Shown here: positions 11,334-28,691 of the stretch, piece by piece
Layout of the letters: every line of letters begins with the position of its first letter
Numbering within the stretch: the stretch's first letter is position 1
Origin: a phage
DNA length: 64,000 bases
Sequence record: PZ338878.1
Reading direction: 5' to 3' (one strand)
Made by a program: the position numbers and the translations under genes
The notes under the pieces: model-generated
Told to the model about the DNA's origin: nothing
The model's database searches: none
What the model saw: the letters and a program-made list of their open reading frames with translations, nothing else

Positions 11334-11361
11334 TTGACATACTGTTTTATTGTGCTAATCT
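11334..11361 (+). promoter_or_regulatory. candidate sigma70-type promoter in divergent intergenic region
   Basis: TTGACA, 16-nt spacer, extended -10 TGcTAATCT. Confidence 0.4.
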
Positions 11362-11393
11362 TAATGCATACACAAATGAGAGGAGATAAACGA

Positions 11394-12196: not shown

Positions 12197-12216
12197 AATA
12201 CAGACGGGAGAAAGGT

Positions 12217-12390: not shown

Positions 12391-12404
12391 GTGAGGAATA
12401 AAGA

Positions 12405-15453: not shown

Positions 15454-16005
15454 ATGCGGATTACTGATAAGTATGTGTTCTTCTTCTCGGCAAAAGATGA
15501 ATTTAGCAACTGGTATCTATCATCTTTTATTGAACCTTTAGCTCCCAAGTATAATAATTCTATTACAAGTTCTGTTGAATTTACTTGTGTGGAACAATAT
15601 ATGATGTGGAGAAAAGCATGTTTGTTTTATGATTACAACATTGCATCTTCTATTTTAACCGGAGATCTAAGATATACAGGAGAAAAAGAACAGGCATATT
15701 ATAAGCGACTAGGTAGATTAGTTAAAGATTACGATGAAGCTACTTGGACTTCTTTACGGGAGAAGATTGTCAAGCGTGGTTTGTATCTTAAATACACACA
15801 AAATGAAGATCTCAAAAATAAACTTATCGCTTACGCAGATAAGGAGTTCGTAGAGGCAAGCCCTTATGATTCTATTTATGGTATCAAAATGGGGATGTGG
15901 GATCGTGATGTTGAAAACAAGGATCGTTGGAAAGGACAAAATCTTTTAGGAAAATGGCATACAGACCTTGCTGTTTATCTAAAAACACAATCTGATATTT
16001 CCTGA
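15454..16005 (+). CDS. NADAR-family (YbiA-like) protein
   Basis: FFFSAKDEFSNWY and EQYMMWRKA motifs; ATG directly follows upstream stop. Confidence 0.6.
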   Translation: MRITDKYVFFFSAKDEFSNWYLSSFIEPLAPKYNNSITSSVEFTCVEQYMMWRKACLFYDYNIASSILTGDLRYTGEKEQAYYKRLGRLVKDYDEATWTSLREKIVKRGLYLKYTQNEDLKNKLIAYADKEFVEASPYDSIYGIKMGMWDRDVENKDRWKGQNLLGKWHTDLAVYLKTQSDIS

Positions 16006-16224
16006 TATTTTGAAAATTTTTATTTTTATAAAAAGGGGTGTGGGTTTCATGTACGGAAATCCACCCTCTGAATAATATATCCAGAGTAAATATTATTCTG
16101 TACTCTGTTAATAAAGTATTTAATTTGTTTGTTGGACTATGGTATCTGATCTTTAAAAGACATACTATCTCTTAACTACTACTTATAACAGAACAGTAAA
16201 ATCATTTTTATAAAAAGGACAAAA

Positions 16225-16425
16225 TTATTTAAAGTTTTTACAGATTTTTGGCTACAAATTTTGAAAATGAAAAGTTCAAGTTTGGTCAAAATTATTTAAA
16301 GTTTTTGTATGTATTTCTATCCAGATTTTGAAAATGAAAACTTCAATTTTTTAAAAATTCCCCAGTTTATTTAAAGTTTTTTTGCCTTTTTCCGTAGAAA
16401 AATCAAAAATGAAAAGTTCAATTTC
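16225..16425. repeat. three tandem ~70-bp direct repeats
   Basis: TTATTTAAAGTTTTT at 16225, 16291, 16367; TTTTGAAAATGAAAAGTTCAA at 16258, 16325, 16401. Confidence 0.7.
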
Positions 16426-16444
16426 GTGTTTTTATAGGTGTGTT

Positions 16445-16557
16445 AATGAGAATCATTTTCGTTTGTAAATGAGAATCATTATCATTTAACTATGTAAGTG
16501 ATAATCATTCTCAGTAAGAGAATGAGAATCATTAGCAAATGAGAATTTTTCTCATTT
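16445..16557. promoter_or_regulatory. array of Fur-box-like hexamer repeats
   Basis: AATGAGAATCATTATCATT, GTGATAATCATTCTC, AATGAGAATCATT close to Fur consensus GATAATGATAATCATTATC. Confidence 0.45.
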
Positions 16558-16818
16558 ACAGAATAACGCGCAGGGGCGGTGTTTGTCTCGCGCTCCCGTG
16601 TCCCCTCGCCATACAATAAGAATAGCATAACCAACAACAAAAGCAAGCGATTATTTTTATCTTTACATTTCTTTACAAATTTATTTTAGACGAGCTACCG
16701 GCGATCAACCTTCCAACCAGGGCCGCCTGGTATGTTAGCCCCGCCTTTACGCCGTGGGGGTGGCGTTTCCTCTTCTGTATGTAAAACAGTATAAGCCCGA
16801 TCCCTGGGCTTGTCAATA

Positions 16819-17085
16819 TTATTTTTTGTTTTCTTGCCAGGATAGGACACCTAACCAAAAATACATGTCGCCCCGCGCCCCTGGCGGGATCTTGCTTTCC
16901 CCGCCGCCACTGCAAGCCCATAAATAACCGTCAGCGAACGGATCAAAGTGATCTATCTCTTCCACCTTATGATCGCCCAGGTTGAGAACGGTTTCAACCT
17001 TTAAGCCCGTTGCGCTTGCTACCTGGTGCACCGTGCCGCCTTGCCAGCCCAATGATTGCATGAGATGTAAAGGAGTATTTGTCAT
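16819..17085 (-). CDS. hypothetical protein (88 aa) in G+C-richer segment
   Basis: ORF; composition differs from surroundings. Confidence 0.35.
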   Translation of the reverse strand: MTNTPLHLMQSLGWQGGTVHQVASATGLKVETVLNLGDHKVEEIDHFDPFADGYLWACSGGGESKIPPGARGDMYFWLGVLSWQENKK

Positions 17086-17196
17086 GGTATCGCCCTTTCT
17101 TTGATGTGCGCCCTGGTTGGCGCGGTAGAAAGATAATAGCCGTTTCTTTTATAGATAGCAAGCAAAAAAGAAATGAAAAAAAGATTAAAAAAACGG

Positions 17197-17256
17197 TTGA
17201 CGTTCCTCACCTGGTAGCGTAGTATTCATCTTGTCGAGGGGCGGCAATAGTGCCGC
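17197..17256 (+). promoter_or_regulatory. promoter + 5'-UTR hairpin cassette
   Basis: TTGACG N17 TAGTAT; hairpin GGCGGCA-ATAG-TGCCGC. Confidence 0.6.
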
Positions 17257-17280
17257 TCATAACAGAAGAGAGAAATAATC

Positions 17281-17553
17281 ATGGCATCATATAGCGCATC
17301 AATGATCGTAATGGGTATCACTGGTAAACCTATGCGCGGTGGCGGATCTTTCGCTAACATCAACATTGACGGGCGTTTATCCCTGGACGCAGCGATCACA
17401 GTGGCACGGGAAACATTTAAAAAAGAATGTAATTTCAATAAACAAGATTATCTCGGTTTTGCTATTGAAAAAACCGCGCGCTTTGTGGATTATAAAAGCC
17501 CGAAAATGATCGACACTACACTAAAAGCGCAAGATGTAGCGTTTTTGCTTTAA
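17281..17553 (+). CDS. hypothetical protein (90 aa)
   Basis: RBS + ATG after cassette. Confidence 0.55.
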   Translation: MASYSASMIVMGITGKPMRGGGSFANINIDGRLSLDAAITVARETFKKECNFNKQDYLGFAIEKTARFVDYKSPKMIDTTLKAQDVAFLL

Positions 17554-17556
17554 GGT

Positions 17557-17618
17557 TTGACACTGAAAAATAATTGGGTAATATATACGACATAAGGCGG
17601 GGAAATGGTTTCCCCGCC
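17557..17618 (+). promoter_or_regulatory. promoter + 5'-UTR hairpin cassette
   Basis: TTGACA; hairpin GGCGGGGAAATGGTTTCCCCGCC. Confidence 0.6.
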
Positions 17619-17640
17619 AAATCAAAGAAAGGGTAATGCA

Positions 17641-18003
17641 ATGAGCAAGCAAATCAATACTATCATGTTTAATCTGGTATCTTTCCGCGATGACGTGAAA
17701 AATCTTTCGCGTGATGCAGTGGATGCACGGATCGAAAGCTATCGCACACAGATCGCAACGTTACCGCTGAAACGTGATCAACATGCCGCTAATATGATGC
17801 TTGATGCTATGATTAAAAAGATGATTCAATGTGATCTTACCCTGGCTTATGAATATGCTGGCGATCTCTTTGTAACATACAGCAAGCCCGTACCAGGCAT
17901 GAGCACCACGGAAGAATTGCATGCCTTAAATCTGCGACAAGATGCATGGGATAACATGCGCCGTGTTATGGTATGGGTAGAAAGCGGTAAAATTTACGAA
18001 TAA
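17641..18003 (+). CDS. hypothetical protein (120 aa)
   Basis: start at ATG 17641 after hairpin; track start 17605 lies inside hairpin. Confidence 0.55.
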   Translation: MSKQINTIMFNLVSFRDDVKNLSRDAVDARIESYRTQIATLPLKRDQHAANMMLDAMIKKMIQCDLTLAYEYAGDLFVTYSKPVPGMSTTEELHALNLRQDAWDNMRRVMVWVESGKIYE

Positions 18004-18009
18004 AAACGG

Positions 18010-18064
18010 TTGACATTGCACTAAAACCTGATAAGCTATCTTAAAGCGGGAATTGTTCCCGCTT
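18010..18064 (+). promoter_or_regulatory. promoter + 5'-UTR hairpin cassette
   Basis: TTGACA; hairpin AGCGGGAATTGTTCCCGCT with compensatory end pair. Confidence 0.55.
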
Positions 18065-18081
18065 ATATAGGATAAAACTTT

Positions 18082-18228
18082 ATGAAACAATATGTAATGA
18101 GTATTCATACCAAAAACGGCGCTACTGTTACGACTCCGGCACGGTTTGCACTTGTAAACCGTTGCAAGAGACTAAAACGAGAGCTAAAAAATAACCGTGC
18201 AACGGGCTTTAAACGCTGGGGAGGATAA
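18082..18228 (+). CDS. small basic protein (48 aa)
   Basis: hand-translated MKQYVMSIHTKNG...KRWGG. Confidence 0.4.
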   Translation: MKQYVMSIHTKNGATVTTPARFALVNRCKRLKRELKNNRATGFKRWGG

Positions 18229-18230
18229 TC

Positions 18231-18491
18231 TTGTTTTTTCTAAAAGTTTTTGATAATGTGATCGCTTTTGAACATGCTACAACGTTCGACCTGGCGAGAT
18301 ACGCTATCAGGTTTAAAGATAATGTTTATCCCCGTGCTGGCGGCGGTTACACTATTTTTAATCATCGCAACGCGCAACTGACTGATGTAACTAATCCAGA
18401 TCCTGGAGTGTATCGGATAGGCTGGCTACCGTCAAAAGACGCTGCAAGCATGTTTAAGGTATGTAAACTACTAACAGAAGAGGCGAACTAA
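18231..18491 (+). CDS. hypothetical protein (86 aa), TTG start
   Basis: GGAGG 6 nt upstream of TTG. Confidence 0.4.
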   Translation: MFFLKVFDNVIAFEHATTFDLARYAIRFKDNVYPRAGGGYTIFNHRNAQLTDVTNPDPGVYRIGWLPSKDAASMFKVCKLLTEEAN

Positions 18492-18492
18492 C

Positions 18493-19047
18493 ATGGGGCG
18501 TGAATATGTGATCCAGTCCTGGGTAAAGCATGATGTAAATGATCCGCGCATAATACCAGATGACATGATCGATCACATGGTAGGGTATAGCGGGGAGCAG
18601 ATAGGAAATCGAGCGGCAAAGAGCAACGGCAACACCAGGACGCGATCCGTTCGCCCTGGATGGCTGGCGAATGGTAACGCTGACATTGCAAGCGCCGCAG
18701 ATCCAAGCGATGACGCTAAAAATAATCCCTTATACAACATTGATCCGGCTTTTAAGGTATTGGAAGAGTATCCCGCTAAATTAGCCGCACTAGATAAGGC
18801 ATACGAAGAAAAGCGCATGGCCTGGACTGTATACAACACCGCTAAAATGGTGCTAGATGCAAAACTAATTAAAGCCCAGGAGAAGATCAATAAACTTGTT
18901 ACCATAGCGCAAGAGGAAGACCAGGGCGACCAGGAGGAAGAGGAAGAAATCATGCCTACTCTGGAAGAGGAAGAGATCCAGCCATACATGCCGACGGAAG
19001 AGGAAAAAAGACAAGCCTTAAAAAATTATGAAAATTGCATTGTGTAA
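18493..19047 (+). CDS. hypothetical protein with acidic C-terminus (184 aa)
   Basis: ORF, RBS. Confidence 0.5.
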   Translation: MGREYVIQSWVKHDVNDPRIIPDDMIDHMVGYSGEQIGNRAAKSNGNTRTRSVRPGWLANGNADIASAADPSDDAKNNPLYNIDPAFKVLEEYPAKLAALDKAYEEKRMAWTVYNTAKMVLDAKLIKAQEKINKLVTIAQEEDQGDQEEEEEIMPTLEEEEIQPYMPTEEEKRQALKNYENCIV

Positions 19048-19050
19048 GGG

Positions 19051-19155
19051 TTGACATATGCAAACAAGCCCCGTAATATGTACCACATAGAGCGGGGCAA
19101 CTTCTCAAAGGTGAAATAAAAAATCAGTTGACACCTGAAATCAGTAAGCTATAAT
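19051..19155 (+). promoter_or_regulatory. tandem promoters (first with degenerate hairpin)
   Basis: TTGACA at 19051 and TTGACA N16 TATAAT at 19128-19155. Confidence 0.5.
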
Positions 19156-19192
19156 GCTTATATAGATTGAAACATTACTAAGGAATAAAAGC

Positions 19193-19372
19193 ATGGCTAT
19201 TATTGCAAAAACTGAGATCGTAGGTTTAGATTCTATCCTCCTGGCATATGAGGAAGCTATAGAAATGTATGTGGTTTCCTATGGTGATTATATCCGTGAA
19301 TATAATTCTATTGATCTAGCTTTTGAATGCTATATTCGCCAGGTAAATAAAGCATACGATGATTATCGTTAA
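19193..19372 (+). CDS. small hypothetical protein (59 aa)
   Basis: hand-translated MAIIAKTEIVGLDSILLAYEEA...; RBS AAGGAA. Confidence 0.4.
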   Translation: MAIIAKTEIVGLDSILLAYEEAIEMYVVSYGDYIREYNSIDLAFECYIRQVNKAYDDYR

Positions 19373-19391
19373 AAGTTTTAGTCTTGTGCTA

Positions 19392-19421
19392 TTGACAACG
19401 AACGATAGTACAAGCATAATA
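19392..19421 (+). promoter_or_regulatory. sigma70-type promoter (no hairpin)
   Basis: TTGACA ... CATAAT. Confidence 0.45.
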
Positions 19422-19467
19422 ACTTTTATCGGGAACACTCCTAACTAATCAAAAGAGATTAAAGATT

Positions 19468-19833
19468 ATGGCTAAAAATATCAATGTTTCTGCTTATGCT
19501 ACCCTGGCTAACACTGCTAAAATTGAACTATCCAGCATTGAAGCGGTACATATTAGCGCCCGTCGCTGGTTTCAAAAGTCTTATGGTAATACTTATTTCT
19601 CTTTGATCGTTGACGTTGAGATCGGCGGTAAACTGATTGAAGTCGTTAACGTTCCGTTTCAATATGGTTATGGTGATCATTTTGATACCGTTGCCCTGGA
19701 AGAGTTTAGCAAGGTTATCAACCTGGAAGGTAAAGAGTTTTCAAATTATGCCTACCTTTCCCGTTTTTGCCGTGATAATGGGATCGCTGTATACAGTCAT
19801 GCAAGCGATGTTAAACGCAAAAAAGATTTATAA
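19468..19833 (+). CDS. hypothetical protein (121 aa)
   Basis: ORF, RBS. Confidence 0.55.
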   Translation: MAKNINVSAYATLANTAKIELSSIEAVHISARRWFQKSYGNTYFSLIVDVEIGGKLIEVVNVPFQYGYGDHFDTVALEEFSKVINLEGKEFSNYAYLSRFCRDNGIAVYSHASDVKRKKDL

Positions 19834-19838
19834 AAGTA

Positions 19839-19900
19839 TTGACAGCACGAATAAAAAGAGTAAAATGTTTCATATCAGGACGGGGGAATGGTTCCCCGCC
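19839..19900 (+). promoter_or_regulatory. promoter + 5'-UTR hairpin cassette
   Basis: TTGACA N16 TAAAAT; hairpin CGGGGGAATGGTTCCCCG. Confidence 0.6.
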
Positions 19901-19919
19901 TATAACTAGGTATAATAAA

Positions 19920-20150
19920 ATGGCTAATATGTATATGACCGAAGTTAAAACCGTAAAAGATACTACTACCAATAAAACTACTTACTTACAGCGGATCTGC
20001 GGTGTATGGCAACGTATTAGTAAAGCAAAGTATTATAAATTAACATCATATGCTAATCGTTCGGATTCATTCCGTACTGAAATAAAAGGTAATAAAGTAC
20101 ACCAATACGGCACTTATTATTATTATAGCCTAGACGCGATTGCAATCTAA
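19920..20150 (+). CDS. hypothetical protein (76 aa)
   Basis: start at ATG 19920 after hairpin. Confidence 0.5.
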   Translation: MANMYMTEVKTVKDTTTNKTTYLQRICGVWQRISKAKYYKLTSYANRSDSFRTEIKGNKVHQYGTYYYYSLDAIAI

Positions 20151-20169
20151 GCATATTTTTAAAAAGCAC

Positions 20170-20230
20170 TTGCAAACTAGGTTTAAAGGCGTATAATGTT
20201 TTGCATAGAGAGCGGGAATAGTTCCCGCCT
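20170..20230 (+). promoter_or_regulatory. promoter + 5'-UTR hairpin cassette
   Basis: TTGCAA N16 TATAAT; hairpin AGCGGGAATAGTTCCCGC. Confidence 0.6.
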
Positions 20231-20252
20231 CACTGAAAAAGAGATTAACATC

Positions 20253-20492
20253 ATGGCTAAATCTAAAATGTACAACGGTCACAAAAACAAAACTCATTGG
20301 AATGTAAGCCTTTGGATTAATAACGATCCAGGTTTTTATAATATGGCAAAAGAATTTATAGCCGTGAACAACAATAAAGATAACGCCGCGCGTGAAATGA
20401 TGGCACTACTTAACGAAATGGGCCAAAATACTACGCCAGATGGCTATAAATTCAGTAAAACCAGTATCCGCGCCGCTATGGTAGGAATGTAA
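20253..20492 (+). CDS. hypothetical protein (79 aa)
   Basis: start at ATG 20253. Confidence 0.5.
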   Translation: MAKSKMYNGHKNKTHWNVSLWINNDPGFYNMAKEFIAVNNNKDNAAREMMALLNEMGQNTTPDGYKFSKTSIRAAMVGM

Positions 20493-20501
20493 TAAAAACA
20501 G

Positions 20502-20561
20502 TTGACAACGTTTTTTAATCTGATAAGATGTATCACATAGGGCGGGAAATGGTTTCCCGCC
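20502..20561 (+). promoter_or_regulatory. promoter + 5'-UTR hairpin cassette (consensus copy)
   Basis: TTGACA...CTGATAAG...CACATAGGGCGGGAAATGGTTTCCCGCC. Confidence 0.65.
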
Positions 20562-20583
20562 AAATCAAAGAAAGGTTAACATT

Positions 20584-20811
20584 ATGGCTATCGTTATTGT
20601 TCGCGTATCCGGAACGGTTGGAATCTCCCAGGTAGTAGCAGTTATCACAGAAAAGAAAGGGGATGATCTTCACTCCTCCTTGAATAGCTGGGCGGTCGCT
20701 AACTTTGGGCAATGGTCGAGCGTTGAGTACATCGAATCCTACCAGGTGCCAACGATTAGCCTAACCGATCTAAATGTTGATCGCTTGTTGTGCCTGGATC
20801 AATTAAACTAA
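20584..20811 (+). CDS. hypothetical protein (75 aa)
   Basis: RBS AAAGG + ATG. Confidence 0.5.
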   Translation: MAIVIVRVSGTVGISQVVAVITEKKGDDLHSSLNSWAVANFGQWSSVEYIESYQVPTISLTDLNVDRLLCLDQLN

Positions 20812-20819
20812 AAATAATA

Positions 20820-20877
20820 TTGACAAGATAACTAAAATCAGTAAAATGTAATGCATAGGGCGGCAATAGTGCCGCCC
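20820..20877 (+). promoter_or_regulatory. promoter + 5'-UTR hairpin cassette
   Basis: TTGACA N16 TAAAAT; hairpin GGGCGGCAATAGTGCCGCCC (compensatory G/C swap). Confidence 0.6.
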
Positions 20878-20898
20878 CTAGTGAGAGAGATTATCAAA

Positions 20899-21114
20899 AT
20901 GGCTAATATCCGCACACTGTTAAAAAATGCAAGTCAAGTTTTATTTTCAGATGACGAGTATTTCAACAAAGACATTACAGGCGTGAAAAATTTAAAAGAC
21001 GTGAAGGATGTTATCGGTATCCGTGGATCTTTACGTAAAGGTGACATATACGGTAACAAGGTGCAATATAAATTGTCAAAAGATTATGATTTTACTTTGA
21101 CAATTATTTCATAA
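20899..21114 (+). CDS. hypothetical protein (71 aa)
   Basis: start at ATG 20899; track start lies in hairpin. Confidence 0.5.
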   Translation: MANIRTLLKNASQVLFSDDEYFNKDITGVKNLKDVKDVIGIRGSLRKGDIYGNKVQYKLSKDYDFTLTIIS

Positions 21115-21120
21115 AACTAC

Positions 21121-21181
21121 TTGCAAACCTGGTAAAATAAAGTAAACTATATTCATTAAGGCGGTGGAATAGCCCACCGCC
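21121..21181 (+). promoter_or_regulatory. promoter + 5'-UTR hairpin cassette
   Basis: TTGCAA ... TAAACT; hairpin GGCGGTGG-AATAGC-CCACCGCC. Confidence 0.55.
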
Positions 21182-21204
21182 TAACAAAGAGAAGAGGAAA
21201 CATC

Positions 21205-21375
21205 ATGATCACTTTCGCCACCCGTGAAGCCGCTCGCAACGTTGCACGTAAAGTTAACGCCGCCAACCTGGGCGCTACGCTTAAAGCCCCGGTAAAAGAT
21301 GAATCAGGAAAATGGATCTTTCCTGGTCTGCGTCACGCTGATAAGCTGGGAACATTAACGTTAAAAAACAAATAA
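21205..21375 (+). CDS. small hypothetical protein (56 aa)
   Basis: hand-translated MITFATREAARNVARKVNAANLG...; RBS AGAGGAAA. Confidence 0.45.
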   Translation: MITFATREAARNVARKVNAANLGATLKAPVKDESGKWIFPGLRHADKLGTLTLKNK

Positions 21376-21381
21376 TATCCG

Positions 21382-21440
21382 TTGACAGTAGCATCATTTA
21401 TAAGTAAAGTAACAACAACGGCGGGAAATGGTTTCCCGCC
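21382..21440 (+). promoter_or_regulatory. promoter + 5'-UTR hairpin cassette
   Basis: TTGACA ... TAAAGT; GGCGGGAAATGGTTTCCCGCC. Confidence 0.65.
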
Positions 21441-21460
21441 ATCAATAAAGAGATAAGATT

Positions 21461-21820
21461 ATGAAATCAGTAAAAGCAATTAAAACTTACATTGTGTCGG
21501 CTATTTCTTTTGATGGTACTACAACCGAAAAAGAAAAGATCACCGAACTGATGCGCCGTTTTAACTCTGAATACTGGTATCCCGATAATCAAAAACGTTA
21601 CAATCATAACATGACCAAGGCGATAGCCTCATGGTTACAAGGTTTACCGTCAGAAGTCAATATTGCTTTTGATTATAATGAGATCGATCACTTGTTAATT
21701 GAATGGAAGTGCATAAAAGAAACAAGCAAAGAAACAACCGTTACCCGTGAGCGGGAAAATTATTGGTTATATATTGCAAGCATGATCGTAATCCTGGCAA
21801 AACAGCATAACGTGGCGTAA
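21461..21820 (+). CDS. hypothetical protein (119 aa)
   Basis: ORF, RBS. Confidence 0.55.
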   Translation: MKSVKAIKTYIVSAISFDGTTTEKEKITELMRRFNSEYWYPDNQKRYNHNMTKAIASWLQGLPSEVNIAFDYNEIDHLLIEWKCIKETSKETTVTRERENYWLYIASMIVILAKQHNVA

Positions 21821-21834
21821 TTAAGAGGAAAAAC

Positions 21835-21972
21835 ATGAACGCATCACAGCAGATCGAAAAATTCAACCGCAGCAAGGCGCGTAAAAATTGGAACGAAGAG
21901 ATCACCAAAAAAGGCGATAAGCGGAACAAAACAAAAAGAGATCGCAGTACAAAAAGACACTGGAACGAATAA
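21835..21972 (+). CDS. small highly basic protein (45 aa)
   Basis: hand-translated MNASQQIEKFNRSKARKNWNEEITKKGDKRNKTKRDRSTKRHWNE; RBS AGAGGAAAAAC. Confidence 0.4.
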   Translation: MNASQQIEKFNRSKARKNWNEEITKKGDKRNKTKRDRSTKRHWNE

Positions 21973-21977
21973 CAAAA

Positions 21978-21996
21978 AGGGCGCAATAAGCGCCCT
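21978..21996 (+). terminator. rho-independent terminator
   Basis: GGGCGC-AATAA-GCGCCC + TTTTA. Confidence 0.6.
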
Positions 21997-22090
21997 TTTA
22001 GCTTATATAGAGGCTTGTTACCCATAGGCAATGGTAACGCCAGGGCAAGCCTATAAATCAACGTTAGACAGCTTTACAGGAGCTTTAAAA

Positions 22091-22273
22091 ATGAAATTAA
22101 ACGAAATAAGCAAGGCACTAGCCCAGGGTCAAAGGTTATGCGCCCGATATCGTGATCAATATGGCTTCATGACTAGCGGCGTGATCCTGGGGATTGAAGG
22201 TAATAAAATTTTTATTGACACGTTGAAAAACGTTGTATATAGTGACAATATAATCTCAATAAAACATATATGA
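22091..22273 (+). CDS. hypothetical protein (60 aa)
   Basis: start at ATG 22091. Confidence 0.45.
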   Translation: MKLNEISKALAQGQRLCARYRDQYGFMTSGVILGIEGNKIFIDTLKNVVYSDNIISIKHI

Positions 22274-22281
22274 GGCAAGAA

Positions 22282-22683
22282 ATGAAAAAATTATTGATCG
22301 CTGGTTTAATCTCTTTTGGCATGGTTGGAACATCTAGCGCGGCGATATCCTCCACAGTAGCAGAATTAAGCGCCGTTGATGCAATGGAAAACGTCATGAT
22401 CATTAATAACGCGATCCCCGATGAAATCATGGAGGATTCTCACATGATCGCTTATGGTGCTGTTACACAATTAACGGCAAAAATAGATAAATCTATTGTT
22501 AATGGCTTAAATGAAGATGTACCATGTGAAATTATTACCAGTGTGCTAACGACTCAAAATTTTACGCCGTGGCTAAAAAGTATTCAAAAGGTACACAGCA
22601 CCGCCGCAGATCGTAGCAATGAAAAACTAGTGTCAGCACTTGCAACGTATACCCTAGCAAAATGCACCGAAATAAAAGATTGA
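22282..22683 (+). CDS. putative secreted/periplasmic protein (133 aa)
   Basis: signal-peptide-like MKKLLIAGLISFGMVGTSSAA. Confidence 0.5.
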   Translation: MKKLLIAGLISFGMVGTSSAAISSTVAELSAVDAMENVMIINNAIPDEIMEDSHMIAYGAVTQLTAKIDKSIVNGLNEDVPCEIITSVLTTQNFTPWLKSIQKVHSTAADRSNEKLVSALATYTLAKCTEIKD

Positions 22684-22706
22684 CAACATAGAAAGCACGT
22701 TATAAG
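22680..22706 (+). promoter_or_regulatory. sigma70-type promoter (no hairpin)
   Basis: TTGACA N15 TATAAG. Confidence 0.45.
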
Positions 22707-22730
22707 ATACACACAACAAAGGAGAACTAC

Positions 22731-23033
22731 ATGAACGGCATAGCTAAAACGTTTTTTCTTTTTTCTGGTGTAAATGATCCATCAATAAAAGTCGATAGCG
22801 TAAAAGAAAACAATACTATCACCGCTAAATTGTTTCAAGATGAAACAAATAACGTGCTAATCATTAATCTTAAAGAAATAACGAAAGGTTATTATACTAT
22901 TGCTTACCATGCGATCTATCATGCTGGTACTAGCGAGGAAGTGCAAACAAGCAACAACGAAAGCGCGGCGCTACCTGGTGATCTGGTGCTGGGCGTTATC
23001 AGTTTAATTGTCAATGATTTTTTTAAGGAGTAA
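22731..23033 (+). CDS. hypothetical protein (100 aa)
   Basis: RBS AAAGGAGAA. Confidence 0.5.
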   Translation: MNGIAKTFFLFSGVNDPSIKVDSVKENNTITAKLFQDETNNVLIINLKEITKGYYTIAYHAIYHAGTSEEVQTSNNESAALPGDLVLGVISLIVNDFFKE

Positions 23034-23037
23034 AACC

Positions 23038-23133
23038 ATGCCCTATTTACATTTATTTTTCGGGATCTTATTGTCAGGATCTTTTTTCTTCTGTATACTT
23101 GTTTCTATTGTAAACCACGTTTTAAGACATTAA
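23038..23133 (+). CDS. small hydrophobic peptide (31 aa)
   Basis: AAGGAG 7 nt upstream; MPYLHLFFGILLSGSFFFCILVSIV. Confidence 0.35.
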   Translation: MPYLHLFFGILLSGSFFFCILVSIVNHVLRH

Positions 23134-23142
23134 GGAAACAGC

Positions 23143-23262
23143 ATGAAAATTATTCCCGTACAGTATAGCGTAATAAATCCAGCATATGAGGAAGGAAGGA
23201 AAACAAGCATGGCTTTATGTTGTATTACTACTATAGCCATGTTATTATATATTGTGTTTTAA
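23143..23262 (+). CDS. small peptide with hydrophobic C-terminus (39 aa)
   Basis: RBS AAGGAAA; hand-translated. Confidence 0.3.
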   Translation: MKIIPVQYSVINPAYEEGRKTSMALCCITTIAMLLYIVF

Positions 23263-23362
23263 TAGGTTTTATAGTTGTACGCTTTAAAGGCTTTACAATT
23301 TTTTGTTATGCTTTAAAATATATCTTGAAAACGGCAAAGGCCGCAAACAAAAGGGTAAAATT

Positions 23363-23686
23363 ATGAAATCTGTGATCGGTGTTTATTTGGATAACTCTGA
23401 TTTTTTCTATCATCGTGCGCGTTTCCTTGATGCGATTGAAATGATAGAATCAGGCTTTAAAGAGTATCGCCTTGCACATGATGACCTGGAAGCATTACAG
23501 GGTAATAGTGTTTTTACATTGCAAGCTAAAGCACTATGCAAAAGCCGGATCGACATTGCAAGCAAAAAGATAGAACGCGGCATGTCCTGGTTGCGCACCG
23601 CAGAAATCAACATGGGGCAATGGTACGGCGAAAACTTAGAAAATAAACTCACTTTTGTAAATGTAGAAAATATTAAAGATTATTGA
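23363..23686 (+). CDS. hypothetical protein (107 aa)
   Basis: start at ATG 23363. Confidence 0.5.
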   Translation: MKSVIGVYLDNSDFFYHRARFLDAIEMIESGFKEYRLAHDDLEALQGNSVFTLQAKALCKSRIDIASKKIERGMSWLRTAEINMGQWYGENLENKLTFVNVENIKDY

Positions 23687-23749
23687 TTGACAGCACACCT
23701 GATAAGTAATATATTGTATCTCATAGAGCGGGGAAATGGTTTCCCCGCC
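23687..23749 (+). promoter_or_regulatory. promoter + 5'-UTR hairpin cassette
   Basis: TTGACA ... CTGATAAG TAATAT ... GCGGGGAAATGGTTTCCCCGC. Confidence 0.65.
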
Positions 23750-23768
23750 TTAACAGAAGAGATAAGAT

Positions 23769-24053
23769 ATGAAAATCACAAAAGCACTTTTCAACTATGC
23801 AGCACGTCGCGGATTATGCTTATCCGTTGAAAATTTAGGAAAAGAAGATTTTTTGTGCTTTTGGGAGCTTGAGAATGATAATGAGTGGATCTTCTCTTAT
23901 TCTATCTGCAAAGATCAAAACGGTTGCTTGTTAACCTGGCGCGGTAATATCTATTTGCCGGAAGAAATAAAACAAGAATTACCAGGCACGATCATGACTG
24001 AGAAACAGCTTAAGGAAGTGATCAATTTTGTAGGGCAAAACATTAAAAAATAA
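23769..24053 (+). CDS. hypothetical protein (94 aa)
   Basis: ORF, RBS. Confidence 0.55.
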   Translation: MKITKALFNYAARRGLCLSVENLGKEDFLCFWELENDNEWIFSYSICKDQNGCLLTWRGNIYLPEEIKQELPGTIMTEKQLKEVINFVGQNIKK

Positions 24054-24054
24054 T

Positions 24055-24114
24055 TTGACAGTAGGCAAACAACGTAGTAAAGTTTATCACATAGGGCGGG
24101 AAATGGTTTCCCGC
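24055..24114 (+). promoter_or_regulatory. promoter + 5'-UTR hairpin cassette
   Basis: TTGACA N17 TAAAGT; GGGCGGGAAATGGTTTCCCGCT. Confidence 0.65.
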
Positions 24115-24137
24115 TCACAGCAGAAGAGAAACAAATC

Positions 24138-24308
24138 ATGATCCCGACTATGTTTTACGTATCGCGCAAAGGTCACAATATTTTTTGGTCTGAAGATTTA
24201 AATGAAGCCATGACGTTTGCCCGTGATCGTGTTGCTATCGGTGGCGTTAATATTACCGTAACCGATGAAAACGGCATTGAATACTATAACGGCGACGATG
24301 AAGAGTAA
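24138..24308 (+). CDS. small hypothetical protein (56 aa)
   Basis: hand-translated MIPTMFYVSRKGHNIFWSEDLNEAMTFA... Confidence 0.45.
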   Translation: MIPTMFYVSRKGHNIFWSEDLNEAMTFARDRVAIGGVNITVTDENGIEYYNGDDEE

Positions 24309-24316
24309 TTAATAAG

Positions 24317-24337
24317 GCGGGGGGAGTATTCCCCGCC
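24317..24337 (+). promoter_or_regulatory. 5'-UTR hairpin (no own -35 seen)
   Basis: GGCGGGG-GGAGTATT-CCCCGCC. Confidence 0.45.
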
Positions 24338-24366
24338 ATCAATTCACAACTAAAAGAGAAATCATC

Positions 24367-24561
24367 ATGGCGCTTAAAAAACTAACAAGCAATACTCGTT
24401 GGGATGAAATTGACGGGGAAGTATACATTTTCGCCCGTAAACCAGGTGATCAAAAATGGTCAAAGGCTTTTACTTGTCACCCTGCAACAATAGATCTAAT
24501 AAAAAGTAAAGGTTTACGTGAAGCAGTAGCGAGAAGTTTACTGATCCCTTGTAAAAAATAG
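24367..24561 (+). CDS. hypothetical protein (64 aa)
   Basis: ORF, RBS. Confidence 0.5.
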   Translation: MALKKLTSNTRWDEIDGEVYIFARKPGDQKWSKAFTCHPATIDLIKSKGLREAVARSLLIPCKK

Positions 24562-24562
24562 T

Positions 24563-24622
24563 TTGACAATATGCGGTTATCTGGTAATATATACCACGTA
24601 GGGCGGGAAATGGTTTCCCGCC
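24563..24622 (+). promoter_or_regulatory. promoter + 5'-UTR hairpin cassette
   Basis: TTGACA N16 TAATAT; GGGCGGGAAATGGTTTCCCGCC. Confidence 0.65.
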
Positions 24623-24640
24623 AGAATAGAGAGAACTAAA

Positions 24641-24745
24641 ATGATTATTCTTACCATGATGTGCGCGGCGGTTATTATTCCTTTGATAACGCTTATTGTT
24701 TCTGAGATCGATGATCTTCTCTTTGAAAGAAGTTTAAAAAAGTGA
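24641..24745 (+). CDS. small membrane peptide (34 aa)
   Basis: MIILTMMCAAVIIPLITLIVSEIDDLLFERSLKK. Confidence 0.4.
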   Translation: MIILTMMCAAVIIPLITLIVSEIDDLLFERSLKK

Positions 24746-24808
24746 TTGACAACGGCTAATAAGCTGATAATATGTATCACATAGGGCGGGGCAATAAGGC
24801 AACGCCCA
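24746..24808 (+). promoter_or_regulatory. promoter + degenerate hairpin cassette
   Basis: TTGACA ... CTGATAATATG ... ATAGGGCGGGGCAATAAGGCAACGCCC. Confidence 0.5.
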
Positions 24809-24825
24809 CTAATGAGGGTAGCATC

Positions 24826-24930
24826 ATGTTAGAGAAAATTTTCACGGTTGTAATAGTGGGCCTGGCGTTATCGGTTGGAGTGATTGCAACTATGGCTAAC
24901 ATGATTCTATCTTCCCACGGTATCGGCTAA
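24826..24930 (+). CDS. small membrane peptide (34 aa)
   Basis: MLEKIFTVVIVGLALSVGVIATMANMILSSHGIG. Confidence 0.4.
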   Translation: MLEKIFTVVIVGLALSVGVIATMANMILSSHGIG

Positions 24931-24931
24931 G

Positions 24932-25156
24932 GTGAAACAAGTGATCACGAATAAGACAGGTAAAACAGAATTTTTACGTAACTTGCAGATCGGCAAGCCT
25001 GAGATCTGGTATTGCACTAAAACACCACGTGACGAAATGAAAGATTTTACCGCTACTTTACAACGTGTTAAAATATCTATCACACAGAAAAAAGCCTTGA
25101 TAGTTGCAGAAAACGAGATCCCGCAAACTATTATCATTGTTGAGCGTACAGCATGA
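24932..25156 (+). CDS. hypothetical protein (74 aa), GTG start
   Basis: ORF from track; weak RBS. Confidence 0.35.
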   Translation: MKQVITNKTGKTEFLRNLQIGKPEIWYCTKTPRDEMKDFTATLQRVKISITQKKALIVAENEIPQTIIIVERTA

Positions 25157-25539
25157 AAACAGAAAACATTAACGAAATGATCAACGGCTATAAAGAAGCC
25201 TTTATTTTTGCCGAACCAGCGACGGATCACAATGGGGAATATATTGAGAATCTAGACGATTATGATTTTTCTTCTAGCGCCCTGGAACGTATTACCAGCG
25301 ATGTGACCGCCTTTTGTAGTGCCAATGTTGCCGCTATCTCTGAGGCAATGAGCGACGGCGCTACAGCAAACCAGATCGGGAATGATTTACATTTCACCCG
25401 CAACGGGCACGGCGTAGGCTTTTGGGATCGCCCTGAAATATACACCACTAACACGGCGAACCGCCTAACAAATGCCGCTAAATTAATGCCATCGGTGCAT
25501 GCTTACATTGGTGAAGATAATTTGATTTATATTGAATAA
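25153..25539 (+). CDS. hypothetical protein (128 aa)
   Basis: ORF overlapping upstream by 4 nt. Confidence 0.5.
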   Translation: MKTENINEMINGYKEAFIFAEPATDHNGEYIENLDDYDFSSSALERITSDVTAFCSANVAAISEAMSDGATANQIGNDLHFTRNGHGVGFWDRPEIYTTNTANRLTNAAKLMPSVHAYIGEDNLIYIE

Positions 25540-25545
25540 AAAGTA

Positions 25546-25604
25546 TTGACACCGATCCCCAATATGGTATTATTTACCACGTAGGCGGGAAATGGTTTCC
25601 CGCC
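25546..25604 (+). promoter_or_regulatory. promoter + 5'-UTR hairpin cassette
   Basis: TTGACA N16 TATTAT; GGCGGGAAATGGTTTCCCGCC. Confidence 0.65.
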
Positions 25605-25627
25605 AGGTAATCAAAAAGGTAAATACT

Positions 25628-26017
25628 ATGCGCAACCTGGTTTCTGTTTCTAACGTTGAAAAATTCCAATCCTTGCAGGGTATCGTTAACAACGTAGCGC
25701 CTTTTTTAGTCAATGGCTTGATTGCAAAGATGAAGAATAAGCATCATGCGGCATGGTCTGCTTACTGCTTTGATAATGATGAAAAAGCGGCTGAAATGAT
25801 GTTAGATATGCTGTTAGACAGTGTTGAATCATCTTTACCGGAAAACATCGCAGAAGAGATCACCTATCGTTATAATATGGCGATCACTTACCAGGAGGTT
25901 GCGCAATTTAATATGATGGACGATGACGAACAACAGGATCAAGAAATGTTTTGGGAGTATGCTGATCGTCAATCGGCTTTTGATGAAAAATTAGCGATGT
26001 ATTATAACGAATATTAA
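25628..26017 (+). CDS. hypothetical acidic protein (129 aa)
   Basis: start at ATG 25628. Confidence 0.5.
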   Translation: MRNLVSVSNVEKFQSLQGIVNNVAPFLVNGLIAKMKNKHHAAWSAYCFDNDEKAAEMMLDMLLDSVESSLPENIAEEITYRYNMAITYQEVAQFNMMDDDEQQDQEMFWEYADRQSAFDEKLAMYYNEY

Positions 26018-26033
26018 TACACGGTAAAAGAAA

Positions 26034-26052
26034 GGGGCGCACTAAGCGCCCT
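26034..26052 (+). terminator. rho-independent terminator
   Basis: GGGGCGC-ACTAA-GCGCCCC + TTTTTT. Confidence 0.7.
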
Positions 26053-26479
26053 TTTTTGTATTCTTTTTTCACGATGGAAACAACACGTAAAGAATAGGCG
26101 TAAAGGTGGCGTAAAACCAGCTAAAACCGATTGTAACCGTTTAAACAAGGTAGGGATGATTAATCACCTTACCAGGATGAAAAAGCCGTTATAAAGCTAT
26201 TTAGAGCGTTTAAAGCACACAGGAAATAATTTGCTTTTTATCTTGCCTTTTATTCTGCTTTTGATTATTATTATGGAACGGGCGGCACCTGGGGACAGGG
26301 GAAGATAATCACCGGACGACCCCGCTATATATTGATAGCTAATAACTATCAAACAACAAAACATCAAAGGAATAAACTATCAAATCTTTACAATTCTACC
26401 TATTGACCGATAAATCATAACAGTTTAATATTGTTTTTAGAGGGTAGAACATACCCAAAACGAAAACAGGAAAAAGAAG

Positions 26480-26716
26480 ATGAAAGAAGTCATGATCCTC
26501 AAAAAATCACCTATTTTACGTGGTGGCTTTATCGCTTACTCTGATGATCTGTTAATTGCAACGGTTGCAAAAATACTAAAATCAGAAGAGGATAGTAAAA
26601 ACGGCGTTTATCGTATCTGTTTCACCCGTGGAAAATTACAAGGCAAGATCGCTTATGCTTTTGATTTACAAGATGTAAATGATAAAATCTGCGCTGTTAT
26701 TGATTATGCAAAATAA
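26480..26716 (+). CDS. hypothetical protein (78 aa)
   Basis: RBS AGGAAAAAGAAG. Confidence 0.5.
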   Translation: MKEVMILKKSPILRGGFIAYSDDLLIATVAKILKSEEDSKNGVYRICFTRGKLQGKIAYAFDLQDVNDKICAVIDYAK

Positions 26717-26728
26717 TTAACTTTCTTA

Positions 26729-26760
26729 TTGACACCGGATCACGCTTACATTATTATTTA
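26729..26760 (+). promoter_or_regulatory. sigma70-type promoter (hairpin absent or degenerate)
   Basis: TTGACA ... TATTAT. Confidence 0.45.
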
Positions 26761-26803
26761 TCACGTAGGGCAAATCATTTTAAACGGTAAACGAGGAAAC
26801 ACC

Positions 26804-27187
26804 ATGAGCAATATCATCAACCTGGCGGCTACTGTAAACGGCAAAGACTTTAACGGCGCTGTAGACCGTGATCCTATGTGGTGCTTATCAGTGTTCAAAG
26901 GTGACTTGGTTGAAGTTAGAACAACCGAAGGTTATAGCGACGATTATAAATGCGAGATCCATTTACATAACTGGTACACGGGTAAAACTTATGCGCTGAA
27001 TCACGCGTTTATCGGGAAAATTGAATATCGCGAAATGATCGACGAAGAAACGGGGCAAGATTTTAGCGATTATGTTTATATTCGTTCCGAAACATTAGCC
27101 GAACGGTTGATCGAGAAAATGAAAGCAAAAAATAAAATTAATTTAGCTCATTGGCTTGATATAACAAACGATCCAGCTTATAAGTAA
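26804..27187 (+). CDS. hypothetical protein (127 aa)
   Basis: start at ATG 26804 with GAGGAAA RBS. Confidence 0.5.
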   Translation: MSNIINLAATVNGKDFNGAVDRDPMWCLSVFKGDLVEVRTTEGYSDDYKCEIHLHNWYTGKTYALNHAFIGKIEYREMIDEETGQDFSDYVYIRSETLAERLIEKMKAKNKINLAHWLDITNDPAYK

Positions 27188-27202
27188 ATAACATTTCACA
27201 CC

Positions 27203-27221
27203 AGGGCGCACAAAGCGCCCT
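27203..27221 (+). terminator. rho-independent terminator closing the small-gene array
   Basis: AGGGCGC-ACAAA-GCGCCCT + TTCTTTTT. Confidence 0.7.
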
Positions 27222-27433
27222 TTCTTTTTACCTAAATAAAGATGATAGCTTTTACCTATCAAAAACGTTCACCGAAAAAAGTGAATAGATCGCGGTATCG
27301 AGCTAATCAAGGAGCAGATGAACAACCATACCATGAAGATCATAAGGCGTTTACAACGTGTTTTAGACCGCTTATTTTTAATTTCTCCATGTAACTATCT
27401 GGCAAAAACAGCCTTTTTCTTGTCTTTCCTCTT

Positions 27434-27508
27434 AAATGATAATCATTCTTATTTATAGCTGATTATTTATGCAATAAACTGCATAATGCAATAATGATAA
27501 TCATTCTT
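27434..27508. promoter_or_regulatory. two Fur-box-like sites
   Basis: AAATGATAATCATTCTT and AATAATGATAATCATTCTT. Confidence 0.4.
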
Positions 27509-28045: not shown

Positions 28046-28420
28046 TAATGTTTGGAACATTGGCTATAATATAAGCTACCCAATAATAAGTTATGCAATA
28101 ATAAACATAGTGAATAATTACCCTGATGATCATAATGCGCCACCTTCCAGGGGCGCTATGTGAACACAAAGAAATCTTTCTTGTCAAGAAAAATATTACC
28201 ATTATTGCGCAAAATTATTTATATATGAATAGACGGTTTTTCATACTATTGCCCCCCCCAAATTATGCCCCTTTTGTTGGGTACAACTATCCCTATTTGT
28301 TGCAATGTATACCTTATTTGTTGAGCATAGTTATAGCCTATTTGTTGAGCCTACTTTCTTAAAAGCGCAATAAATTAGAATTATCTTGATTTTTAGGGCG
28401 TTTTATAGTATAGAAAATAT

Positions 28421-28439
28421 GCAAATGATAATCATTATC
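28421..28439. promoter_or_regulatory. near-consensus Fur box
   Basis: GCAAATGATAATCATTATC vs consensus GATAATGATAATCATTATC. Confidence 0.5.
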
Positions 28440-28606
28440 AGCTATCTTCCACGGGTAGCACTATTTCACGCAGGATCATTTCATTTGGCAAGGTGTATAT
28501 AGATGTTTAGAAATGCCAAGCCATTGATTTGCTTAGAATTTATCTGTTTTGTTGGGAATAGTGCCTTTATTGTCCAGAAAATAATCAAAAGTCTTATAAG
28601 TCATTG

Positions 28607-28640
28607 AATGATAATGCAAATGATAATAATTCTCATTGAT
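28607..28640. promoter_or_regulatory. Fur-box-like repeat
   Basis: GAATGATAATGCAAATGATAATAATTCTCATTGAT. Confidence 0.4.
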
Positions 28641-28691
28641 ATTTGAGGGGGACGGTCGGCAGAAATCGGGGGGCGCTGAAAATCGCGTTAA

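Follow-up and report, generated by a model that had tools for sequence, protein, structure and literature searches.

Three non-coding regions bracketing the terminal early-gene block of a phi92-like phage were found to carry dense arrays of sequences that are, by every applicable sequence criterion, Fur boxes; they occur far beyond chance expectation and have been maintained in evolution. We believe that host Fur probably binds these sites. Beyond that, we put at about even the chance that the arrays are host Fur operators acting as iron-dependent transcription blocks at the borders of the terminal early block. Fur binding in vivo and its consequence for transcription are what we infer from these patterns, which suggest that phage control regions are tied to the iron status of the host in a way not described before.

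The gene order of the window, by which we mean the whole stretch of DNA analysed (64,000 nucleotides), was as in phi92 (ORF list and phi92 annotation; Table 1), and the 2-kb stretch around the left cluster of boxes was 97–98% identical to the Justusliebigvirus phages inny, Paula and VEcB. By sequence, the window is that of a large, virulent, phi92-like (Justusliebigvirus) E. coli myophage, a genus that we take to comprise phi92-like E. coli myophages of ~148 kb within the subfamily Stephanstirmvirinae. The genome size is ~148.6 kb on phi92 coordinates (148,612), and the complete relative VEcB has 148,885 bp. ARAGORN detected no tRNA genes in the window. The assembly is circularly permuted and collapsed, so that the direct terminal repeat (DTR) is present once. 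The DTR was assigned in the window solely by homology to phi92, being 94.5% identical to the annotated DTR-L (1–343) and DTR-R (148270–148612) of that phage, both of which have the same sequence. Four TATTTGTTG repeats (28262–28347) adjoin its left boundary, and these, rather than the Fur boxes, are the likelier terminase sites. A run of N (28693–28759) starts two bases past the DTR end; the masked sequence reads GCACCTCTCGCAAGC...TTATGAAAA in VEcB, without any box.

Fur-box-like arrays on both sides of the small-gene array

Sites were scored with a symmetrised position weight matrix made from 11 Fur operators of E. coli K-12 MG1655 (fepA-fes, fepD-entS, fepB-entC, fhuA, fur, fiu, tonB, cirA, exbB, ryhB and fecI), taken from the 12 Fur-regulated promoter regions fetched. 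The native operators used score 11.1–20.0 bits with this matrix. Its specificity was high in 75 kb of E. coli control DNA, where 15 of the 17 sites at or above 14 bits lay within known Fur promoters; the fur promoter's own box, outside the training set, was among the 15. The initial annotation had proposed that Fur-box-like sequences flank the small-gene array on both sides, and indeed all the sequences it named were present at the positions given and bracket the array. Nine window sites in the clusters reach 15.0–22.7 bits, and the best of them, with two mismatches to the consensus, outscores all the native operators used.

Table 1. Coordinates of the boxes and surrounding features in the window. 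Scores in bits are those of the E. coli Fur matrix.
Feature	Position	Strand	Score or basis
Minus-strand genes	window start to ~12 kb	-	phi92 layout
Operon homologous to phi92 gp217-223	ends 16005	+	phi92 layout
Non-coding DNA, 1.3 kb	between gp217-223 operon and small-gene array		phi92 layout
Three AT-rich direct repeats, 67–75 bp, immediately left of the Fur cluster	16204..16424		repeat search
Left cluster, site 1, GTTAATGAGAATCATTTTC	16442..16460		19.3 bits; exact core match
Left cluster, site 2, GTAAATGAGAATCATTATC, with an overlapping unit shifted by 6 bp	16465..16489		19.3 and 14.4 bits
Left cluster, site 3, GTAAGTGATAATCATTCTC	16494..16512		16.5 bits
Left cluster, site 4, GAGAATGAGAATCATTAGC	16518..16536		19.7 bits
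Left cluster, site 5, palindrome AAATGAGAATTTTTCTCATTT, a degenerate copy of GAATGAGAATCATTCTCATTT	16535..16559		12.1 and 11.5 bits
Conserved non-coding element, probably structured RNA	16556..16830	+	243 phage records, covariation
Small-gene (early) array, phi92 gp225-gp248	17281..27394	+	ORF list, phi92 annotation
Non-coding DNA, 1.7 kb	between small-gene array and gp001-036 block		phi92 layout
Fur-box-like site just 3' of the last array gene, TTAAATGATAATCATTCTT	27432..27450		15.3 bits
Fur-box-like site, AATAATGATAATCATTCTT	27490..27508		20.0 bits
DTR, 343 bp, physical genome ends	28348..28690		homology to phi92 (blastn)
Best site, GCAAATGATAATCATTATC (28421–28439), with two flanking phased units	28415..28445		22.7 bits
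Three phased units, TGAATGATAATGCAAATGATAATAATTCTCATTGAT	28605..28640		15.0, 18.9 and 13.6 bits at 28610, 28616 and 28622
Second gene block, phi92 gp001-036	right of the 1.7-kb non-coding DNA	+	phi92 layout

The boxes lie in AT-rich DNA (~37% G+C across the window, 33.6% in the 26–28 kb stretch) in which other repeats are abundant, and they could in principle be chance products of such repeat-rich non-coding sequence. The counts argue strongly otherwise. Seven window sites reached 18 bits or more, compared with 0.04–0.06 expected from order-1 and order-3 Markov simulations of the window, an enrichment of more than 100-fold over composition-matched sequence. Six of the seven are at 16442–16536, 27490, 28421 and 28616. 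The seventh, at 52764 (18.8 bits, in a coding sequence with phi92 gp063 homology), looks like background by its sequence context, as does a 16.7-bit site at 39421 in a coding sequence with gp034 homology. The core AATGAKAATCATT with up to one mismatch gave 13 matches in the window (9 distinct sites) versus 0.57 expected, all of them at 16445–16533, 27435, 27493, 28424 or 28619–28637, and the classical 19-mer Fur consensus GATAATGATAATCATTATC with up to three mismatches gave 6 versus 0.06. In the whole genome of VEcB, 9 of the 13 sites at or above 15 bits were in homologues of the three clusters, and the 85 kb beyond the window-equivalent part held none at that threshold. The simulations and the comparative data, which include conservation of the boxes across subfamilies, thus rule out a chance origin, to which we assign a negligible probability. 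The claim of the initial annotation that site density and quality exceed chance stood up to the matrix scan and its Markov control.

The internal build of the arrays also resembled that of native operators. Although only the 13-bp core was used as the query in the AATGAKAATCATT search, the flanks of the matches fit the Fur consensus as well, with G at position 1 and TC at positions 18–19. A matrix derived from the phage sites correlated with the E. coli Fur matrix over all 19 positions (r = 0.925, null maximum 0.59), a comparison that is partly circular because the sites were picked with the latter. Pairs or triplets of sites phased by 6 bp occur at 16442/48, 16465/71, 16494/500, 16518/24, 27432/38, 28415/21/27 and 28610/16/22, matching the overlap pattern of native E. 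coli Fur promoters. Site density is higher than in any of the 12 native Fur promoters, with 6 sites of 12 bits or more in 141 bp compared with at most 3, and the three phage clusters contain more and stronger sites than each of the 12. Capture of a host promoter was considered as a source of the left cluster; blastn against E. coli genomes gave nothing beyond short alignments with E values of 1 or more, so the left cluster is not a captured host promoter.

Conservation of the boxes and of an adjoining non-coding element

Boxes were kept at all three places in the Phapecoctavirus phage phAPEC8 and in a Klebsiella relative, in which the flanks are ~70% identical or unalignable. On the right side, the sites at 27432 and 27490 come after the last array gene and its terminator. 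The first is retained in inny, phi92 and VEcB, and the second has a 16.6-bit counterpart in phAPEC8, TGCAATGATAACCATTATC, at the equivalent place after the array. Within the DTR, the best site is 74–92 nt from the left end and the triple array 50–85 nt from the right end; because the two arrays are inside the repeat, each physical end of the virion DNA carries both. In phAPEC8 the best site has a 15.4-bit counterpart in the first half of the repeat, and the triple array corresponds to a phased pair (16.2 and 17.7 bits) placed ~55 nt before the conserved right boundary, which falls between ...CGCGTTAA and GCAC. The terminal palindrome of the left cluster is retained as well by Salmonella, Cronobacter and Erwinia phages of the genera Seunavirus and Henunavirus. 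Among four Justusliebigvirus genomes, variation in the right region affects 3.9% of the box columns compared with 15.1% of the remaining non-coding ones (p = 0.004).

In the left region the same four close genomes give a different picture, with box columns no more conserved than their well-conserved neighbours, which counts against reading the sites as Fur operators. Site 1 is identical in inny and VEcB and scores 16.0 bits in phi92, and the counterparts of the degenerate site 5 in relatives reach 14–20 bits. The left cluster directly adjoins a conserved element of ~250 bp that matches 243 phage records and is annotated in none of them. The segment 16537–16720 is conserved far above its surroundings, with 87–89% identity in Phapecoctavirus and ~75% in Seunavirus phages of Salmonella and Cronobacter. 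Alignments of eight phages of the subfamilies Stephanstirmvirinae and Vequintavirinae, with hosts among E. coli, Klebsiella, Salmonella, Cronobacter and Erwinia, showed that the palindrome GAATGAGAATCATTCTCATTT is conserved immediately to the left of the element in both subfamilies. It forms a symmetric 7-1-7 unit (TGAGAAT-C-ATTCTCA) and ends, with constant spacing, 3 nt before a (C/G)(A/T/G)GAATGAC box.

With an invariant part of the element as the query, IMG/VR yielded 16 further loci. Those retaining the left half of the element have the Fur palindrome 3 nt before the GAATGAC box, except for two uncultured relatives (L161 and L171), in which another palindrome, TAGTCAC-N5-GTTACTA, is found in tandem copies at the identical position. 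L161 gave only distant Stephanstirmvirinae matches. In both loci a direct-repeat pair comparable to the repeats left of the Fur cluster precedes the operators. The fixed spacing to GAATGAC combined with the palindrome swap suggests operator-like behaviour of this site.

The element itself most likely encodes a plus-strand structured RNA. Its 3' domain can be folded into two hairpins with 17 pairs, in which 90.9% of the alignment cells are paired compared with 33–50% when the pairing partners are slid; four of the pairs show compensatory changes, and the covariation exceeds that in all 500 shuffles. We assign the RNA to the plus strand because three pairs alternate between U-G and C-G, which is compatible with that strand only. 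RNAalifold on the entire element gave weak, ambiguous results on both strands, and the testable fold comes from the 3' domain only. A search of Rfam 15 returned no family match to the element, and two sub-threshold chance matches within 15000–30000. The element ends at a hairpin with a T-run (16791–16813, terminator scan). A conserved minus-strand promoter proposed at 16816..16788 (TTGACA-17-TATACT) is disfavoured by its 21-nt spacer in L161 and by the conserved T-run; the hairpin within this segment is more likely a bidirectional terminator serving gp224 and the plus-strand RNA.

No convincing promoter was found between the palindrome and the RNA when sigma-70, extended -10, sigma-54 and sigma-E patterns were searched by hand. 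The best candidate (TTGAAT-18-CAGAAT) is weak, and roughly one lineage in three lacks its critical A at -11. The RNA may be made by read-through from the gp217-223 operon, downstream of which no terminator was predicted. Promoter scans likewise placed no sigma-70 promoter over any box in the window; because of this, and of the lost A at -11 in the candidate, a classical box-over-promoter architecture would be putative.

The palindrome is also widespread beyond these phages. The exact 19-mer AATGAGAATCATTCTCATT was present in at least 120 IMG/VR contigs ranging from 27 to 65% G+C, compared with none for a control palindrome of the same half-site composition. Copies were mainly intergenic: 6% lay under ORFs of at least 450 nt, compared with 56% of random positions. 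Some copies adjoin or overlap consensus sigma-70 promoters: one contig (L091) has three tandem palindromes just upstream of a consensus TTGACA-17-TATAAT promoter, and in another (L044) the box begins right after a TATACT -10. In a third (L045), Fur palindromes stand beside DnaA boxes. Some of these contigs may contain host DNA, and this spread is taken as supporting context only.

Candidate readers and functions of the arrays

The initial annotation had suggested that host Fur might tie early-gene expression to iron status. The boxes do match Fur operators; the promoters of the early array do not carry them. Each of these promoters forms a module of its own within an intergenic gap and consists of TTGACA-17-TAATAT, or a near match to it, with a conserved GGCGGGAAATGGTTTCCCGCC hairpin behind it. 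The phAPEC8 annotation lists them as host-dependent promoters, and the matrix scan of the window detected no Fur box in any of them. Direct Fur control of the early array is therefore unsupported. Our preferred reading, operators that block transcription at the borders of the block, places the action elsewhere. The operator arrays would occupy three control regions: five tandem sites (16442–16559) directly upstream of the putative plus-strand RNA locus, two sites just past the last early gene (27432–27508), and two arrays inside the 343-bp DTR, thus at both ends of the virion DNA. In an iron-replete cell, dimers of Fe2+-Fur would bind cooperatively and spread along the arrays, and bound Fur would block initiation or passage of RNA polymerase at the borders. 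This would affect above all rightward transcription into the RNA locus, and also transcription that enters or crosses the terminal repeat. When iron is limiting, Fur would depart and the blocked transcripts would be made.

The initial annotation had also raised the possibility that the boxes are operators of a phage-encoded DNA-binding protein with Fur-like specificity. This suggestion gained slightly from the palindrome swap in L161 and L171, since operator swaps usually accompany repressor swaps; the swap is the pattern expected of a phage repressor co-evolving with its operator and counts against host Fur as the reader. The early arrays also comprise dozens of small proteins annotated without function, several of which are annotated as possible transcription regulators in phi92. 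On the other side, the motif fits the Fur matrix at all 19 positions and outscores native operators. With phmmer (E up to 10), the phi92-like genomes (the window and VEcB) gave no homologue of Fur or of the T5 proteins A1 and A2, and the T5 ORF set gave no Fur homologue and matched only its own A1 and A2. The motif is shared with T5-like phages, with which no common regulator was detected. The only proteins that T5 and the phi92-like phage have in common are enzymes of nucleotide metabolism and housekeeping, namely ribonucleotide reductases (NrdA, NrdB), NrdD, PhoH, a phosphatase, a Sir2-like protein, a cell-wall hydrolase and an endonuclease-like protein. Since no shared regulator was detected, the reader common to both phages is most simply a host protein. 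Moreover, the contigs listed with the exact palindrome are mostly unrelated to T5 or VEcB, and its presence in at least 120 contigs of such varied G+C favours one host-conserved reader over many convergent phage proteins. We consider a phage-encoded reader unlikely, and a host factor appears the more economical choice.

If Fur is the reader, the boxes might serve to remove it from host promoters rather than to control phage DNA. Multicopy Fur boxes titrate Fur, which is the basis of the FURTA assay. With about 12 high-affinity sites per genome copy, in number and strength exceeding any native promoter examined, Fur would be titrated as replication proceeds, and derepression of the iron-uptake and Fe-S assembly regulon would feed the ribonucleotide reductases of the phage, which depend on iron. 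NrdA, NrdB and NrdD, all iron enzymes, make up most of what T5 and the phi92-like phage share at the protein level. Titration would come only late in infection, however. Nor would a decoy have to lie at any particular place, whereas the sites are kept precisely 3 nt from GAATGAC and inside the DTR. We further down-weighted this explanation because T5, according to 10.64898/2026.04.02.716235, destroys host DNA in its pre-early phase, so that derepression of host genes would be useless to it. Overall, a Fur decoy seems to us quite improbable.

The placement of some boxes speaks for a different, architectural role, in which Fur or another box-binding protein would form a nucleoprotein complex near the DNA ends and ~8% from the right end, serving as a DNA-entry checkpoint that resembles the T5 injection stop, protecting the ends, or helping terminase in the manner of IHF at lambda cos. 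Sites 50–90 nt from the DNA ends and inside the DTR suggest a non-regulatory role, which weighs against a transcription block. A distance of 12.2 kb, equal to 8.2% of the ~148.6-kb genome, separates the left cluster from the right physical end. In blastn the cluster also matches T5-like phages, with 76% identity over 81 nt to Repeat Region 3 of T5. T5_ev219 has a large untranslated region at the inner end of its left terminal repeat, where a perfect AAATGAGAATCATTCTCATTT occurs together with AATGAGAATCATT-type repeats that run for 170 bp, directly beside DnaA boxes. Of the 12 sites of 13.5 bits or more in that genome, 10 fall within its first 10.4 kb, one of them a 22-bit site at 549, and the cluster at 9848–10368 directly adjoins the DnaA boxes of Repeat Region 3. 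This box region is the Repeat Region 3 of Davison, who regards it as the prime candidate for the injection stop signal (iss) and its internal repeats and palindromes as having a function "impossible to guess"; Fur and iron are nowhere mentioned in that preprint (bioRxiv 10.1101/866236). According to the same preprint (10.1101/866236), the first-step-transfer DNA of T5 amounts to 7.9% of its genome. Both phages have non-coding DNA with repeats where the terminal early block ends on its inner side, at 8.2% here and 7.9% in T5. They also agree in the orientation of their terminal small genes, which point to the DNA end, and the Fur palindromes beside DnaA boxes in L045, a third and unrelated contig, fit the same picture.

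Several observations run against this architectural role. The DnaA box TTWTNCACA gave 13 matches in the window compared with 10.5 expected, and none between 11912 and 32182, so that DnaA boxes are not above chance and none is near the clusters; the phi92-like regions, lacking them, are therefore not copies of the T5 region. The palindrome conserved into Vequintavirinae goes with the non-coding element rather than with an end. Mutants in fur support plaque formation by T5, and we know of no report of two-step injection for the phi92-like group. In our view an architectural role has a rather low probability. Its most specific form, in which Fur would be a structural host factor for terminal regions of large virulent enterobacterial phages, binding the DNA at the arrays as it enters and forming the T5 injection stop signal together with DnaA and, in phi92-like and rV5-like phages, an analogous iron-sensitive checkpoint at entry or at the early-to-middle transition, located at the array 8% from the end, we hold to be improbable.

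Comparison with known systems

Fur boxes belong to the textbook picture of bacterial iron regulons; those known from phages are, to our knowledge, only single operators over prophage toxin genes. Our literature search returned nothing connecting Fur boxes with these phages or with T5, and no prior description. Dense, top-scoring arrays in the terminal repeats and core control regions of virulent phages, conserved across Stephanstirmvirinae and Vequintavirinae and recurrent in T5-like phages, would imply either that host iron state is read or that Fur is borrowed as a DNA organiser. For T5, injection-stop repeats that have been catalogued for decades without a function would gain a concrete, testable identity. 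The arrays may also matter for phage therapy, in which phages of these groups are directed at E. coli, Klebsiella and Salmonella within iron-restricted tissue, where Fur is off. In addition, an unannotated and widely conserved locus resembling a structured RNA has been exposed beside the boxes.

T5 Repeat Region 3 resembles the left cluster in having the same AATGAGAATCATT repeats and palindromes, and in its place at the inner border of a terminal early block whose small genes read towards the DNA end, about 8% into the genome. It differs in its paired DnaA boxes, of which there are eight within the IRD'/IRC' inverted repeats (10.1101/866236), in these inverted repeats themselves and in nine DRD repeats, none of which is present in the window. 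The terminal repeat of T5 is ~10 kb compared with 343 bp in the phi92-like phage, and T5 depends for its two-step transfer on A1 and A2, of which no homologue was detected in the phi92-like phage.

Compared with the boxes of the E. coli iron regulon (iucA, entC, fepD-entS, ryhB and fur), the phage arrays have the same 19-bp consensus, the same hexamer or 7-1-7 build, the same 6-bp phase and the same clustering, with scores that are equal or higher and a density above that of any native promoter examined. Native boxes overlap the -35 or -10 of the promoter they regulate, whereas no promoter could be placed over the phage boxes, which, unlike native ones, are on a virulent phage and partly inside a terminal repeat.

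Phage-borne operators for a host iron repressor have precedents in Fur at the stx1 promoter of Shiga-toxin phages and DtxR at the tox operator of corynephage beta. There, too, the phage genome carries the operator and a phage function tracks host iron. These are single operators over one cargo toxin gene of a prophage, whereas the phi92-like phage, which is strictly virulent, has about a dozen sites in core non-coding regions and at the ends, conserved across subfamilies and with no cargo gene. The IHF sites of lambda cosB offer a further parallel, as the sites of a host DNA-binding protein are built into the region that forms the DNA end; the protein and the motif are different there, and this analysis produced no link between the boxes and terminase.

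A conserved non-coding element beside the left cluster of Fur-box-like sites

The non-coding element at the right end of the left cluster of predicted Fur boxes (coordinates of this and the other features are collected in the table) was found in records from both Stephanstirmvirinae and Vequintavirinae; in Aeromonas phages, only the 3' part of the element matches. The fold of this 3' domain comprises two hairpins, in which compensatory changes occur, and the U-G/C-G alternation within the domain is strand-specific. One lineage carries a cUUCGg tetraloop, and a pyrimidine-rich tail, UUUCCUCUUCU, follows downstream of the two-hairpin domain. Nothing matching the element was present in Rfam. We believe that it probably represents a new phage RNA family.

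Three records labelled 'Campylobacter phage' with C. jejuni as host (MG065656.1, MG065689.1 and MG065639.1) share 94-99% identity with the present group of E. coli phages in the compared regions; these are probably mislabelled or contaminant assemblies.

Coordinates of features in the phage sequence and in loci of other phages
Feature	Location	Strand	Remarks
Three AT-rich direct repeats, 67-75 bp each	16204-16424		directly left of Fur cluster
Conserved non-coding element	16556-16830	+	matches in 243 phage records, without annotation
Early-promoter module, 8-11 copies	17570-26780		intergenic gaps of small-gene array
Very AT-rich stretch	27510-27800		between small-gene array and terminal repeat
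Four TATTTGTTG repeats, 21-24 bp spacing	28262-28347		last one stops exactly at left boundary of terminal repeat
Direct terminal repeat, 343 bp	28348-28690
Run of 67 N	28693-28759		starts two bases past right boundary of terminal repeat
Swapped palindromes	L161, L171 (IMG/VR contigs of uncultured relatives)		~145-175 nt upstream of CTACCGGCGAT
Fur-box-like cluster of T5_ev219	L013 (T5_ev219 7693-12778), 2155-2680

Repeats and promoters from the Fur cluster to the terminal repeat

Each of the three repeats adjoining the Fur cluster contains TTGAA-N9-TTCAA. Relatives also have direct repeats at this position, but of other sequence; the repeats may serve as iterons or as an unwinding element. Within the array of small early genes, the promoter module is built of TTGACA, a 17-nt spacer and TAATAT or a variant of it, followed by a conserved 5'-UTR hairpin, GGCGGGAAATGGTTTCCCGCC, to which the PHIRE 'promoters' of the relative phAPEC8 correspond. 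Repeated motifs in the AT-rich stretch beyond the array are CTATCTAAC-like sequences and TAATCTATC.

The four repeats abutting the direct terminal repeat are candidate terminase recognition sites. The terminal repeat is made up of two related modules, ~160-195 bp long, each with ATGCAAATGATAAT at its end. In the relative VEcB, the counterpart of the N-masked stretch reads GCACCTCTCGCAAGCGAGCAGTATTTTGCGGCAAGTTATTGATATTATTGACTTTACGCTTATGAAAA, and no Fur box was found in this corresponding sequence.

Fur-box-like palindromes and repeats in uncultured phages and in T5

The same Fur palindrome occurs in further uncultured phage contigs from IMG/VR: in L045 it is adjoined by DnaA boxes, L091 carries three tandem copies of 30 bp a short distance before a consensus sigma-70 promoter, and in L044 it begins directly after a -10 hexamer. 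In the two relatives with swapped palindromes, tandem TAGTCAC-N5-GTTACTA copies take the place of the Fur palindromes and lie 3 nt from the conserved GAATGAC box, as Fur palindromes do elsewhere.

A T5_ev219 protein (105066-105740), encoded beside nicking endonuclease and terminase genes, weakly resembles the 'endonuclease' gp222 of phi92 (28% over 114 aa, E = 8e-7). The match covers ~14320-14660 of the window, and the gp222 gene lies a short way upstream of the non-coding region on the left.

The dmp gene of T5 contains a predicted 22-bit Fur box at position 549 (T5_ev219, L025), at a distance of 550 nt from the left end, and the candidate injection-stop region (Repeat Region 3) contains a cluster of Fur-box-like repeats adjoining DnaA boxes.
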